A DNA stretch of 32,000 nucleotides from Methanothermobacter marburgensis str. Marburg (lineage in GTDB: Archaea > Methanobacteriota > Methanobacteria > Methanobacteriales > Methanothermobacteraceae): NCBI RefSeq assembly GCF_000145295.1, contig NC_014408.1:1140001-1172000 (forward strand), given 5' to 3'. Below are positions 13,089 through 17,390 of the stretch, one piece after another; position 1 is the first letter of the stretch; each line of letters begins with the position of its first letter. Both the position numbers and the translations under genes were made by a program. The notes under the pieces are model-generated. The model was not told where the DNA came from, did no database searches, and saw only the letters and a program-made list of their open reading frames with translations.

Positions 13089-13673
13089 TCAGATGATGCC
13101 GTTGTACTTCAGGAAGGCTATCATCTGGGTGTAGGATTTTGTAACACTCCCCGATGCAACCGAACCATGGGGGGACCGGACCTCAGCTGTAACTGCAGGG
13201 ATACCTGCAAGGTTGCAGACATCCTCAAGGGCTCCTGGATAATCCTTACCTGCCACCTGTGATGGTATGAGGGCTGATCCGCTGTAACGGCTCATATAGG
13301 ATGCCATCCTGTAGCTCTCATAGGTGGGTATCCTTGTGCAGAGAATCGATGTTTTCCCGGGCACTCCACCAGGCCTTGTTGAGTGGAAGTCCCCCACGGC
13401 ACACACACCCCTTGAAGCAGCCAGCTGAACTATTCTGTTGGATGGTGTGCCCCTCACATTTGCAATGCTGTTGGGGTTCTTACCATTCCAGTACCTGTAA
13501 CTCCTGGCAGTGGATGATGGTATGAGGAACGGTACAACGTAGACCGTCCCCTTTATCCTTTTACCTGAAAGATAATTTATGAGTTTAACAGCGGCAATTG
13601 AAGCTGGAAGTTCATTTCCGTGGACCCCTGCGACTATTATAACCTTTCTGTCACCATTACCAAATGTGAACAT
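13089..13673 (-). CDS. M14-like zinc peptidase / succinylglutamate desuccinylase-aspartoacylase (AstE/AspA) family protein. Possibly the 3' part of a longer ORF interrupted by TGA.
   Basis: VIIVAGVHGNELPASIAA carries the HxxE zinc motif. VGDFHSTRPGG holds the third-ligand His, and AVTAEVRSPHG the catalytic Glu. The same frame continues upstream for 38 sense codons to a single TGA (13788-13790). It then continues into the 63-aa ORF 13788..13979 (see findings). Confidence 0.6.
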   Translation of the reverse strand: MFTFGNGDRKVIIVAGVHGNELPASIAAVKLINYLSGKRIKGTVYVVPFLIPSSTARSYRYWNGKNPNSIANVRGTPSNRIVQLAASRGVCAVGDFHSTRPGGVPGKTSILCTRIPTYESYRMASYMSRYSGSALIPSQVAGKDYPGALEDVCNLAGIPAVTAEVRSPHGSVASGSVTKSYTQMIAFLKYNGII

Positions 13674-14015: not shown

Positions 14016-15194
14016 TTATATATCAGATGTCAGATGCCTTGCGAGGCGCCTTGCAAGTGCCATGAGGGTGAGGATTGGTGGAGCCCCTGGTGCCTCAGGC
14101 AGGACACTTGCATCGGCCACAAAGAGGCCCTGAATGGATGTTTCAAGGTTCGCGTCTACAACATCCCCTATTGCAGCTGTGCCCCCGGGGTGGGCTCCAC
14201 GGGGGCGTGTGGATCGTAGGGTATCCGCCCTTACACCTGCCTCAGATAGAACCGCCCCTGCAAGGGCAGCGCCCTCAGCGAGATACCTCACATCCCTCTG
14301 GGTGTGGTGCTTCACAACCCTATTAGCCTCCACACGGCCGCAGGCCTCATCCCTTATCTTGACCATGAGCCCCAGGACGTCACTCCTATTCCTCTCAGGA
14401 AAGAGGAGAGTTGAGAAGTGGGGTGAAAGTATGAAGCCGTCCATTTCAATGAGGGCATTCATCTGGACCTCATCACAGAACCCGATCCCATCAAGTATGC
14501 CCCCCACCGTAACGAAGGTGTCCATGAAGAACTTTCTCCCTGCATCAATACCTGCCCTCATCAGGATTCTTGGGGTTTCAACTGCCCCTGCTGCCAGGAC
14601 AACGGTTTCATCATGGAAACTGCCTGCTGATGTTTCAAGACCCCTGACCTTCCCCCCTTCCAGAATCAGATCCCTTGCCTCTGTCTCCTTAACCAGCACC
14701 GCGCCGTGTTCAATGGCCTCATCCATGAATTCCCTGGCAGACCATTTGGCACTCCTGGGGCAGCCAAAGGAGCATTTACCGCATGGTCTGCATTTTTCGG
14801 GTCTTATGAACTTCGGCATCCTCCTTATTTCAAGCCCAAGGGACTCTGCCGCATCCATGATGAGTGCAGTCCCCCTCCCGATGTGTGTATCCGGGAGTTC
14901 CCGCACATCAAGTTCCCTCTCAATGGCATCAAGATCATCTGTTATATCAACACCATAATCCTTCAGCGTGTCCTCAAGGACTCTAACGGCATTACCCGCT
15001 GCCACGAGGGTTGATCCACCCACACAGCTTGTTTTAAGGATGTCAGGGTCGTCTGAACTTTCATCATAGCACAGAAATGCATCCCTGTCCTGAACGTAGG
15101 GGCCCCTTTCTATTACGGTAACATCAAATCCTCCCACTGCAAGTTCCCTTGCAAGGGTTGCCCCTGAGGCCCCGGAACCGACTATGAGAACCAT
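14016..15194 (-). CDS. GMC-family FAD-dependent oxidoreductase with an internal CxxCxxCxxxC motif
   Basis: MVLIVGSGASGATLARELAVGGFDVTVIERGP is a dinucleotide-binding GxGxxG fold. The C-terminal GMC signature is HPGGTAAIG...GLFVADASVLPEAPGAPPILTLMALARRLA. The motif CRPCGKCSFGC lies mid-protein. AGAGGTGA sits 4-5 nt before the ATG at 15192-15194. The track TTG at 15245 would overlap the upstream gene by 8 nt. Confidence 0.7.
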   Translation of the reverse strand: MVLIVGSGASGATLARELAVGGFDVTVIERGPYVQDRDAFLCYDESSDDPDILKTSCVGGSTLVAAGNAVRVLEDTLKDYGVDITDDLDAIERELDVRELPDTHIGRGTALIMDAAESLGLEIRRMPKFIRPEKCRPCGKCSFGCPRSAKWSAREFMDEAIEHGAVLVKETEARDLILEGGKVRGLETSAGSFHDETVVLAAGAVETPRILMRAGIDAGRKFFMDTFVTVGGILDGIGFCDEVQMNALIEMDGFILSPHFSTLLFPERNRSDVLGLMVKIRDEACGRVEANRVVKHHTQRDVRYLAEGAALAGAVLSEAGVRADTLRSTRPRGAHPGGTAAIGDVVDANLETSIQGLFVADASVLPEAPGAPPILTLMALARRLARHLTSDI

Positions 15195-15237
15195 CAATTC
15201 ACCTCTTTTTCTCAGGATCTGAAAACCGGATCTGGTT

Positions 15238-15624
15238 TCATTCAAATAGCATTATGGCCCCTGTAGGGCATGAGTTCACACAGAAGCTGCATCCTATGCA
15301 CTTCTGGTCGTCAATCCTGATCTCCCAGTCATCCTCGATGCATATGGCGCTCACAGGACAGAGCGAGACGCAGGCTCCACAGTCCACGCACTTCTCCCTG
15401 TCCTTCTTTACCACCCTCATTGCAGGGTGAACCTCAATTCCAGCGTCCTCGATGAAGTCTATTCCCTCCTTCTCCTCCGGACCGCTTATCTCAACAAGCA
15501 TCTTACCCCCACGTGGGGTGATGTTGGCACGGAGTATGTTGAAATCAATGTCGTACCTCTTTATTGCCTCTGAGATTATGGATTTATTAACGATATTAGG
15601 TGAGAATTTAAGCCAGGCCTTCAT
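15238..15624 (-). CDS. NIL-domain / 2x[4Fe-4S] ferredoxin, the homocysteine-biosynthesis partner protein (MA1822-type)
   Basis: The N-terminal NIL domain contains DFNILRANI. Two canonical clusters are present, [12 protein letters not shown] and [12 protein letters not shown]. The ATG overlaps the stop of the upstream DUF39 gene (ATGA at 15621-15624). Confidence 0.85.
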
Positions 15625-17168
15625 ATTGACTCTCCCCTATTCTCCAGTTTTCCTATCAGCCTTGAAATATCCTCTGCTGTGATTATACCCTTCACCCGGT
15701 TTTCCTCATCCACTATCGGTAAACCTGATATGTTATATTTATCTATACGTCTTGCAACAACGTCAACGGGTTCATTTTCCCGTGCTACGATTACTCTGCG
15801 GGTCATTACATCCTTCAGACTTTTCTTGCCCCTTGCAACTGCATCTGCGATGTCCCATGATGTCACAATACCCCTGAGGATGCCCTGGCTGTCAACAACA
15901 GGTATATGGTTTATGTTGTTATCAACCATCTTCCTCGCCACCTCCCTGAGGTCGTCATCCTCGTGGGTTATTATGACGGGTTTGCTCTCGAGTTCCCTCA
16001 CCATGATGGAGGGCCTTCGTATTTCAAGTGGCTTTGTGGAATGGCCCCTTGATGGTAGGGGTTTTAGGGGTTCTGTGAGGAGGAAATCTCCCCCTTCAAT
16101 CCATGATTTCAGTTCCACTGCAATCTCCGTCGCCTTTTTAAGTGATGAAAGTGGAGACGTTGGGACCTCAACACCATTTATTTCAATTTTACCTGATTTG
16201 AGCTCCTTATAGTTTGTTTCCATGATAACTGGTCTTGATCTTCTTGGAACACCGTAGTCTATCACCCTGCAGACTATTTCCTCATCTGATATTCCTGTTG
16301 CAGCTGCTATATCCTCATTGAGCACTGGTATGGGTATTCCCGCCCCAACATAGAGTGTGGGGCCATACCTTGGCATGGTCGCCCCCCTCACGTATTGGGG
16401 ATCCATCTCCTTCATATCACCCCTGACCATGAGGGTCCCTGCGGCTGAAACAGGAACACCATTCTTTCTATCCACATCCGTTGAGTGCTGTGTTCCCTCC
16501 CCGATTATATAGCCCTCTGAACCGCAGAGGAATATCTTTGTGCCCACCCCTATCGTCTGGAAGTAGGGGTCGTTGAGGAGGGGGCTCAGTTCCCCTGCAC
16601 TTGAATATGTCACATTACCGTAATTTGGAAGGAGTGTTCCCATGTAGGTGTAGAGGGTCTCCTGGGTTGAATTGACGGCAACTGCATAGTTCTGGTAGCA
16701 GTTTCTGGGGTTTACCATCACCGCCTGGTTTATTGTATCAAGACTTATGAGGGTCTCCACGCTCTTTAATGGGTAGCAGTCTGTACCGTAGGCCTCTGCA
16801 ACCAGTTCTATCTCCTTTCCCCTTATGAGGTCCTCTATAACATGTGAACCTCCATAGCTGAGGCCTATCTCAGGGTCCCTGTTTGGTTGTGTTGCCCCTA
16901 TGTAGGCGTCCACAGCTGCAAGCCCTGAATATGCTTCCACACCATTCAGGTACGTTTTCGACATCTTTATTGGTGGATCAGAGTGTCCGAAGTTGAGGAA
17001 AGCTCCTGATGAACACATAGCACCAAATGTACCGGTTGTAACAACATCAACTTCTCTTGCAGCAGCTTCTGGTCCGGTTTCAGCCACAATTGCTGTCATC
17101 TCAGCTGCAGTTACGACGACAGCATCCCCATCCCTGATCTTCTGGTTTATTTCTTCAATTGTTTTCAA
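15621..17168 (-). CDS. DUF39 (COG1900a) + tandem CBS-domain protein: L-aspartate-semialdehyde sulfurtransferase for homocysteine biosynthesis (MJ0100/MA1821-type)
   Basis: 515 aa. The N-terminus [24 protein letters not shown] and the large DUF39 body match the family. The C-terminal CBS pair is [19 protein letters not shown] ... [19 protein letters not shown]. The start is TTG at 17166-17168. Confidence 0.85.
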
Positions 17169-17390
17169 TATACCACATCCGGTGCTATCTGTAAAATGAA
17201 CTGATTAGTTGGTATATGGGTGTTCATTTAAATAATTTATCTAATCCACTGAATCCCACCATCTGAAGATTTGCCTACCTACAGTAGCATTCTACAAACC
17301 TTAATGATACCATCCAACTAAACATGCAAAAGAATCATAAGGCTCCACTTACAGATAAACCTAAAGAAACTTCTTGAAGGCTGATGGGAA

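Follow-up and report, generated by a model that had tools for sequence, protein, structure and literature searches.

The window analysed here is a 32,000-nucleotide stretch of the Methanothermobacter marburgensis str. Marburg genome (contig NC_014408.1, positions 1,140,001 to 1,172,000; the genome comprises 1.64 Mb on two contigs). It contains three consecutive minus-strand open reading frames (ORFs; 15621-17168, 15238-15624 and 14016-15245), the first two of which encode, judged by homology, the subunits of the homocysteine-forming enzyme L-aspartate-semialdehyde sulfurtransferase (hereafter L-ASST), and the third a flavoprotein of the GMC family. This flavoprotein is neither a subunit nor a dedicated accessory of L-ASST, because it occurs in many genomes devoid of this enzyme, its gene is mostly found apart from the L-ASST genes, the usual third gene of L-ASST loci encodes an ApbE-like protein, and the flavoprotein was not found in genomes of several other L-ASST lineages. 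The archaeal protein family to which it belongs is almost ubiquitous among Methanobacteria and frequent in ANME-1. Our preferred reading, held tentatively with a probability of about 0.45, is that it represents a general, stand-alone flavin adenine dinucleotide (FAD)/iron-sulfur (Fe-S) electron module in sulfur trafficking, for which the homocysteine enzyme may be a client in Methanothermobacter. Survival of the flavoprotein gene in organisms without L-ASST would thereby be accounted for.

Distribution of the flavoprotein and of L-ASST

Among 151 Methanobacteriales genomes, the flavoprotein was detected in 150, representing 27/27 genera (298/301 across the class), whereas an L-ASST orthologue was present in 75 genomes from 15/27 genera. 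In the genera without L-ASST, a search for the PF01837 family yielded only the shorter MMP16-type COG1900 protein. One genome of genus g13 (G047; a single contig of 2.9 Mb, 99% complete) had no PF01837 matches, of either the L-ASST or the MMP16/ComF type. Adjacency was determined by comparing the coordinates of both searches, and the loci were verified by tblastn. The two systems were adjacent in 24 of the 75 genomes containing both, apart in 50 and located at a contig break in one. The separated pairs lay 60-340 kb from each other when present on the same contig and otherwise on different contigs, and no GMC gene was found within the flanks of one L-ASST locus from each of six separated genera or of seven further Methanobacterium-type loci. 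Synteny nevertheless reaches beyond the genus Methanothermobacter, since the adjacent pairs represent at least 8 genera.

The view from L-ASST was obtained with 80 loci of this enzyme from many archaeal phyla. A GMC gene was located no more than three genes downstream of L-ASST in 4/80 loci (three from Methanobacteria and one, L090, from an ANME-1 metagenome-assembled genome, MAG), and 1/69 loci outside Methanobacteria had the flavoprotein. In contrast, 45/80 loci carried a gene for an ApbE-like protein (~240 aa) after the L-ASST pair, often together with ThiS, ThiF and a SepCysS-like gene. This third gene is presumably of the COG2122, MA1715 type, and in the window genome it is found ~115 kb from the L-ASST pair. 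In three same-strand rows from Hadarchaeota (L070, L072 and L079), the genes for L-ASST, the NIL-ferredoxin (the second L-ASST subunit), the ApbE-like protein, ThiS, ThiF and a SepCysS-like protein form a compact sulfur-assimilation cluster. The ApbE-like gene directly follows the NIL-ferredoxin gene in most lineages other than Methanosarcina, where five loci (L115, L116, L126, L127 and L132) have a DUF166 protein (PF02593, 4.3e-63) encoded two to three genes after the NIL-ferredoxin.

No member of the GMC family was identified in three of five L-ASST genomes from other lineages (G302 Methanomethylovorans, G304 Hadarchaeota and G305 Archaeoglobaceae). Likewise, GMC_oxred_C had no match in the genomes of Methanocaldococcus jannaschii and Methanosarcina acetivorans, where L-ASST was studied and where PF01837 matched in both. 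In ANME-1, the GMC family was present in 37/61 MAGs, and L-ASST was adjacent in 1/20 GMC loci; a 90%-identical relative is without the L-ASST pair at that position.

The original prediction regarded the flavoprotein as a candidate electron-input module, or a persulfide/disulfide reductase, of the homocysteine pathway; taken as a dedicated module (or persulfide reductase), it would act through the NIL-ferredoxin. It also regarded the reductant of this pathway as unsettled, and on this point the literature agrees: the electron demand of L-ASST and its sulfur species were described as still unclear in 2025, with electron supply assigned to the ferredoxin subunit (PMC12068725). A dedicated role would further be consistent with the common strand, with the short distances (7-43 nt) between the genes in Methanothermobacter, family f3 and genus g9, with the predicted Fe-S relay site beside FAD, and with adjacency in the 24 genomes and the ANME-1 MAG. 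We nevertheless consider it very unlikely in view of the unequal occurrence of the two systems in Methanobacteriales, their separation in 50/75 genomes, the rarity of the flavoprotein at L-ASST loci of other archaea, its absence from the organisms named above, and the 19/20 ANME-1 GMC loci without adjacent L-ASST. At the surveyed L-ASST loci, the position after the pair is taken much more often by the ApbE-like gene than by a GMC gene.

Fold and predicted Fe-S site of the flavoprotein

The product of the third gene had been proposed to be a GMC-family flavoprotein, which agrees with both the domain and the structural searches. In Pfam, it matched GMC_oxred_N (4.2e-19; 69.7 bits, cut-off 23) and GMC_oxred_C (6.6e-11; 43.4 bits, cut-off 24.6), with a weak ferredoxin-type match at residues 147-177, and the GxGxxG motif of the FAD fold is represented by VGSGASG. 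The protein fell into no equivalog of NCBIfam, where its best matches (mycofactocin MftG and choline dehydrogenase) were far below threshold. An AlphaFold2 (AF2) model based on a 53-sequence alignment had a predicted local distance difference test (pLDDT) score of 97.1. Foldseek searches with this model returned GMC folds as the top matches, the best being the fructose dehydrogenase large subunit (FdhL; 9jqa_A and 8jej_A, query-normalised TM-score, TMq, 0.86-0.87), followed by the alpha subunit of the Burkholderia cepacia FAD-glucose dehydrogenase (BcGDH alpha; 8grj_B and 6a2u_B). These two proteins outranked the pyranose, pyridoxine and cholesterol oxidases. At 392 aa, compared with ~500-600 aa for full-size GMC proteins, and with a target-normalised TM-score (TMt) of 0.54-0.67, the flavoprotein lacks a full-size substrate-binding domain. 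Like it, BcGDH alpha (6A2U, 8GRJ) and FdhL from Gluconobacter japonicus (7W2J, 8JEJ), its best structural matches with TMq values of 0.80-0.87, have a GMC-type FAD domain, but they are ~150 residues longer (TMt 0.61-0.64) and share 15-17% sequence identity with it.

The unusual CRPCGKCSFGC motif noticed in the original prediction is real and appears to be an Fe-S site. In a profile alignment, C135, C138, C141 and C145 of the flavoprotein correspond to C212, C213, C218 and C222 of BcGDH alpha, so that the Cys loop aligns position for position with the ligands of a known cluster. In the crystal structure of BcGDH alpha, a 3Fe-4S cluster at the surface is bound by Cys212, Cys218 and Cys222 and relays electrons of FAD to the partner subunit (PMC6719666). 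The spacing differs, as the flavoprotein has a ferredoxin-like C-x2-C-x2-C-x3-C-P arrangement with four Cys, whereas the BcGDH/FdhL type is C-C-x4-C-x3-C-P. Two ANME-1 members show C-x5-C-x3-C-P, which is the spacing of the three BcGDH ligands. The C-x2-C-G-x-C-x2-G-C motif was found in 120/120 closest homologues and in 62/113 full-length cluster representatives; its four Cys are invariant in alignment A1, the sequences of which were picked for having the motif. From sequence comparison, the motif is a homologue of the 3Fe-4S electron-transfer site of BcGDH alpha, and the presence of a cluster in the flavoprotein is predicted. By analogy to BcGDH alpha and FdhL, electrons would pass from FAD to the cluster and on to a partner protein, with the Fe-S site serving as a putative electron gate. 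The type of cluster, the direction of electron flow and a contact with the NIL-ferredoxin are each what we infer. We conclude that the flavoprotein is a compact dehydrogenase-type protein with FAD and a predicted Fe-S cluster, which is ~150 residues shorter than the classical GMC enzymes.

GMC-fold 3Fe-4S dehydrogenases have already been described in bacteria, where they form membrane complexes with cytochrome c partners. Genes for the cytochrome c and the Tat (twin-arginine translocation) 'hitch-hiker' subunit of the BcGDH/FdhL complexes do not accompany the flavoprotein gene, the host of which is a strict anaerobe without that respiratory context. No genes for a multi-haem cytochrome c or a small Tat-signal subunit were present among the annotated neighbours in the surveyed loci; in the window, these neighbours encode the NIL-ferredoxin, L-ASST and an M14-like peptidase. 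The literature searched did not reveal a short, cytochrome-free archaeal GMC/Fe-S protein encoded with sulfur-trafficking genes, nor any work on the GMC flavoprotein family in methanogens or with sulfur carriers.

In the active site, His335 and Pro336 of the flavoprotein are at least 90% conserved in alignment A1 and align with the HPCGT sequence of pyridoxine 4-oxidase (4HA6). GMC enzymes possess a second catalytic residue, His or Asn, ~40 residues downstream of the first His. In a hidden Markov model (HMM) alignment, an Asn in the C-terminal helix of BcGDH alpha, which we take to be the catalytic residue, is matched to the first of two nearly invariant Pro residues (P372-P373) of the flavoprotein. 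These features bear on a redox-neutral coupling, in which the GMC protein would oxidise L-homoserine to aspartate semialdehyde and the two electrons would return through the Fe-S site and the NIL-ferredoxin to the reductive thiolation (net homoserine + sulfide -> homocysteine + water). In principle, GMC enzymes turn alcohols into aldehydes, the catalytic His is conserved, the oxidation would yield the substrate of L-ASST and the electrons would balance. Such a coupling is highly improbable, since it meets the same distribution problem as a dedicated module, leaves the ThiS, ThiF, HdrBC and NifU neighbourhoods of the family unexplained and, in the HMM alignment, faces a Pro at the presumed position of the second catalytic His/Asn.

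Gene neighbourhoods and a possible role in sulfur trafficking

Across the flavoprotein family, the recurrent neighbours include genes of sulfur trafficking: ThiS, ThiF, ThiI, HdrC/HdrB-like, TusA, DsrE-like, IscS-type, NifU-like, Thi4 and YcaO-TfuA. The most regular arrangement surrounds GMC-2, a paralogue 44-49% identical to the window flavoprotein, which is absent from Methanothermobacter and was detected in 46/151 Methanobacteriales genomes at E<=1e-128. In the 30 best GMC-2 loci, the same-strand order cysS-GMC2-(ThiF-like)-HdrC-like was observed wherever the 1.5-kb flank reaches, with the ThiF-like gene missing in one genus, and an HdrB-like (CCG) gene came next in the five loci with a long enough flank. 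The complete cysS-GMC2-ThiF-like-HdrC-like-HdrB-like unit was found in three further genera. This conserved unit is represented by the loci L180-L209 and L214-L217, and in the genome G029 a MetY-type gene, TusA, a DsrE-like gene and a cysteine desulfurase lie on its flanks. Its gene content resembles that of an HdrBC-type sulfur module, apparently one not described before, in which a GMC-fold flavoprotein would stand in for HdrA.

The heterodisulfide reductase (Hdr) modules, composed of HdrA, HdrC and HdrB (and in the bacterial sHdr version accompanied by TusA/DsrE), are comparable in that GMC-2 is likewise encoded with HdrC-like and HdrB-like proteins and, in G029, with TusA, a DsrE-like protein and a cysteine desulfurase. 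Their logic runs from a flavoprotein to a dicluster ferredoxin and on to a sulfur-active subunit, and the three genes of the window are laid out alike. Unlike HdrA, the flavoprotein has a GMC fold, and the window genome is without GMC-2; the likeness is one of possible working and not of membership.

Other branches of the family have sulfur-related neighbours in different arrangements. In genus g6 (L210, L211 and L218), where GMC-2 is patchy (8/35 genomes), it is followed by ThiS, and in some cases ThiI, with gaps of 17-30 nt, or accompanied by a divergent ThiF gene. Genus g15 has a duplicate of the window-type GMC gene near ThiI, ThiS, ThiF, HdrC/B-like genes and an MMP16-type COG1900 gene, as well as near a sulfonate-type ATP-binding cassette (ABC) transporter recognised by eye, and in genus g10 the orthologue of the flavoprotein adjoins ThiI. 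In a quick maximum-likelihood (ML) tree, midpoint-rooted for drawing and with Shimodaira-Hasegawa-like approximate likelihood ratio test (SH-aLRT) values as the only support, the main ANME-1 clade is the sister of the window orthologue group (SH-aLRT 99). Directly downstream, this clade has a gene for a NifU-like protein, and its further neighbours encode CutA, an IscS-type desulfurase accompanied by a PP-loop ATPase, Thi4, ThiF together with YcaO and TfuA, and a fusion of a radical S-adenosylmethionine (SAM) protein with ThiS. We also observed that in six loci from ANME-1 and a related metagenome contig (L162-L166 and L172) the GMC-like gene is immediately followed by one for a 73-86 aa NifU-like protein, after which come genes for CutA and an apurinic/apyrimidinic (AP) endonuclease, and preceded by one for a 63-67 aa Cys-rich protein. 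Two unrelated archaeal contigs (L051:679-4427 and L174:319-4106) show another arrangement, with a thiamine pyrophosphate (TPP)-dependent enzyme, a TiaS-like protein (TCKD domain, 318-324 aa) and, in this order, a GMC-like gene, which overlaps the TiaS-like gene by 4-17 nt; in L051 an Iso_dh gene is located upstream.

The sulfur-gene theme of the GMC family is suggestive, and the neighbouring sulfur-carrier, HdrBC-like and Fe-S assembly genes are compatible with a flavoprotein that supplies a partner of the ferredoxin type in reactions of sulfur. In the general sulfur-trafficking module that we favour, FAD would be positioned beside an Fe-S cluster held by C135, C141, C145 and possibly C138, and this cluster would connect the flavin electronically to a redox partner outside the protein, as it does in the closest solved relatives. 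The exchange would involve small dicluster ferredoxin-type proteins serving sulfur-insertion or persulfide/disulfide-resolving enzymes, and in Methanothermobacter these clients may include the NIL-ferredoxin of L-ASST. The electron-input idea of the original prediction thus survives in part: a flavoprotein of sulfur chemistry that feeds a ferredoxin-type partner gains indirect support from the neighbours of its relatives, but a dedicated role in the homocysteine pathway does not.

Several observations weigh against a function in sulfur trafficking. Apart from the four motif Cys, no Cys is conserved in alignment A1, and because of this the flavoprotein is without the redox-active Cys pair with which other flavoproteins act on sulfide or disulfides. 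Conservation of His335 suggests ordinary GMC hydride transfer on an alcohol-type substrate. Methanococcales and Methanosarcina perform the same sulfur chemistry without the GMC family, and no experiments on any member of this family were found in the literature. The window orthologue group itself has non-sulfur neighbours, including a DUF5518 membrane protein (in five genera), HxlR, TldD, PyrI, SecD and the M14-like peptidase, and the bacterial relatives are located in lipid-type clusters with acyltransferase, acyl carrier protein (ACP) and Polyketide_cyc genes. Furthermore, the neighbourhood themes come from related genomes, which are not independent, and from a comparison that did not include the frequency of sulfur genes beside random genes.

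Some of these observations, together with the gene order, are those expected if the flavoprotein were an unrelated neighbour of L-ASST, kept in place by inherited gene order, for example an alcohol- or aldehyde-type dehydrogenase of another pathway (such as envelope or lipid metabolism) that is co-transcribed through genome compactness. Gene maps suggest an ancestral block of SecD/PyrI, the M14-like peptidase, the GMC protein, the NIL-ferredoxin and L-ASST, with a divergent TldD-AMMECR1-NOG1-Hsp20 group. The flanking genes are syntenic as well, the M14-like peptidase being as faithful a companion as the ferredoxin. In genera without L-ASST the GMC gene stays beside TldD (L038, L040 and L041), and in genera with a relocated GMC gene it is L-ASST that stays beside TldD (L033, L035, L037, L045 and L047). 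In a Methanothermus-like genome the two are 326 kb apart, and the GMC gene is followed by one for a PMBR envelope protein. The spacers between the NIL-ferredoxin and GMC genes are 17-43 nt in Methanothermobacter and 7-11 nt in family f3, and in genera g4, g14, g17, g18 and g23 they measure 90-239 nt and are AT-rich with T-runs. The lipid-type clusters of the bacterial relatives point the same way. Against an unrelated neighbour stand the genes for sulfur carriers, HdrBC-like proteins and Fe-S assembly that recur beside family members in several arrangements and two archaeal classes, and the separate juxtaposition of L-ASST, NIL-ferredoxin and GMC genes in the ANME-1 MAG (L090). On balance we regard such a neighbour as possible but somewhat unlikely.

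The sulfur-trafficking reading also has a bolder form, in which the short GMC FAD/Fe-S proteins of Methanobacteria and ANME-1 would be the missing redox module of sulfide-based sulfur assimilation. Through small dicluster ferredoxins (NIL-ferredoxin or HdrC-like proteins), they would give electrons to, or take them from, the enzymes of sulfur insertion or of persulfide and acyl-disulfide resolution, namely L-ASST, HdrB-like proteins and the ThiS/ThiF/ThiI systems; the window protein would then be the physiological electron partner of homocysteine synthesis in Methanothermobacter. This extension is speculative, and we judge it unlikely as it stands.

The L-ASST pair and the layout of the locus

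The two upstream genes had been assigned to the known homocysteine pair, an assignment that the domain content and conserved residues support. The larger protein matched the HcyBio family PF01837 (6.6e-157) over profile positions 1-349 of 349 and has tandem C-terminal CBS domains (2.3e-29, two stretches), which set it apart from the MMP16/ComF type; in the NCBIfam search, it scored 145 bits with methan_mark_16 against a cut-off of 364. Its homologues begin with MKTIEEIN, and Cys52 (GAMCSSG) and Cys131 (GTDCYP) are invariant in alignment A2. They match the conserved Cys54, which is essential, and Cys131 of the M. acetivorans L-ASST (PMC12068725). The smaller protein contains a NIL domain (1.4e-12) and Fer4 in two stretches (3.8e-15), and eight Cys are invariant in the NIL-ferredoxin alignment A3. 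The two genes share 4 nt (15621-15624), an ATGA overlap through which, as originally proposed, they are translationally coupled. From these sequence features the two proteins are the L-ASST pair, with a homocysteine-forming activity predicted by homology. The MA1821/MA1822 pair of M. acetivorans and the MJ0100 type show the same combination of HcyBio with two CBS domains, both Cys and a coupled NIL + 2x[4Fe-4S] ferredoxin. With MA1821/MA1822 there is no material difference in the pair itself; the difference is in the third gene, which elsewhere is usually ApbE-like.

All three ORFs of the original prediction were recovered (Table 1). Of the two starts proposed for the flavoprotein, ATG 15194 is the real one, because the 120 closest homologues (389-416 aa) have a short N-terminus of the MV(I/L)(V/I)VG type that matches residue 1 of the 392-aa form; the alternative TTG at 15245 was ruled out on the same ground. 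The distance from the NIL-ferredoxin stop codon to this ATG is 43 nt, with AGAGGTGA located 5 nt before the ATG. The original prediction would have been contradicted by an independent promoter or terminator in this spacer, and neither was detected: a pattern search revealed no TATA-like match on the minus strand, and the minus-strand spacer RNA folds no better than shuffles (z-score 0.38). A hairpin-like signal at 15215-15233 was rejected as a terminator since it occurs on the plus strand only. Co-transcription of the flavoprotein with L-ASST in Methanothermobacter is plausible because the spacer is this short and has neither a minus-strand TATA-like match nor significant structure. The intergenic region upstream of the L-ASST genes is the probable promoter region of the three-gene unit, as suggested by its TATA-like matches. 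Downstream of the flavoprotein, the M14-like peptidase gene keeps its place next to it in many genera, one of which has no L-ASST.

Table 1. Features of the flavoprotein and L-ASST locus (positions in the window)
Feature	Position	Strand	Basis
L-ASST catalytic subunit, COG1900a/HcyBio with two CBS domains, 515 aa, TTG start	15621..17168	minus	Pfam, alignment A2
NIL-domain ferredoxin subunit, 2x[4Fe-4S] motifs, 128 aa, ATG overlapping the upstream stop (ATGA)	15238..15624	minus	Pfam, alignment A3
Spacer, 43 nt, Shine-Dalgarno-like AGAGGTGA; no promoter or terminator evident	15195..15237	minus	Sequence, RNA fold, pattern search
Short GMC-fold FAD protein with predicted Fe-S cluster site, 392 aa, GMC-1 orthologue group	14016..15194	minus	Pfam, AF2, Foldseek
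C135-x2-C138-G-x-C141-x2-G-C145 followed by Pro146, predicted Fe-S ligands (CRPCGKCSFGC)	14760..14792	minus	Translation, profile alignment
AHPGGTAA, GMC signature with conserved active-site His335	14172..14195	minus	Translation, conservation
Divergent intergenic region shared with the TldD gene; TATA-like TTTAAATA/TTTATCTA at 17227-17243	17169..17390	.	Sequence, pattern matches
M14-like peptidase gene (PF24827, 7.7e-09), downstream of the flavoprotein	13089-13673	minus	Pfam

How methanogens living on sulfide make thiols, thiocarboxylates and Fe-S clusters from it is an open question, as is the source of electrons for the aldehyde-to-thiol step in the synthesis of homocysteine, coenzyme M and probably coenzyme B. 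Our survey discards a too narrow answer, that the flavoprotein is part of the homocysteine enzyme, and offers a broader one that can be tested. The L-ASST pair is an already known system, and the apparently new part is the short, cytochrome-free archaeal GMC/Fe-S version beside sulfur genes. It belongs to an uncharacterised archaeal FAD/Fe-S family, the members of which resemble in build the subunit that exports electrons from bacterial sugar dehydrogenases, and the genes of which recur beside those for sulfur carriers and HdrBC-like proteins. Should the sulfur link be true, a candidate for a missing redox component will have been named; should it be false, the family would still represent a new version of the 3Fe-4S GMC dehydrogenases, compact and free of cytochromes.

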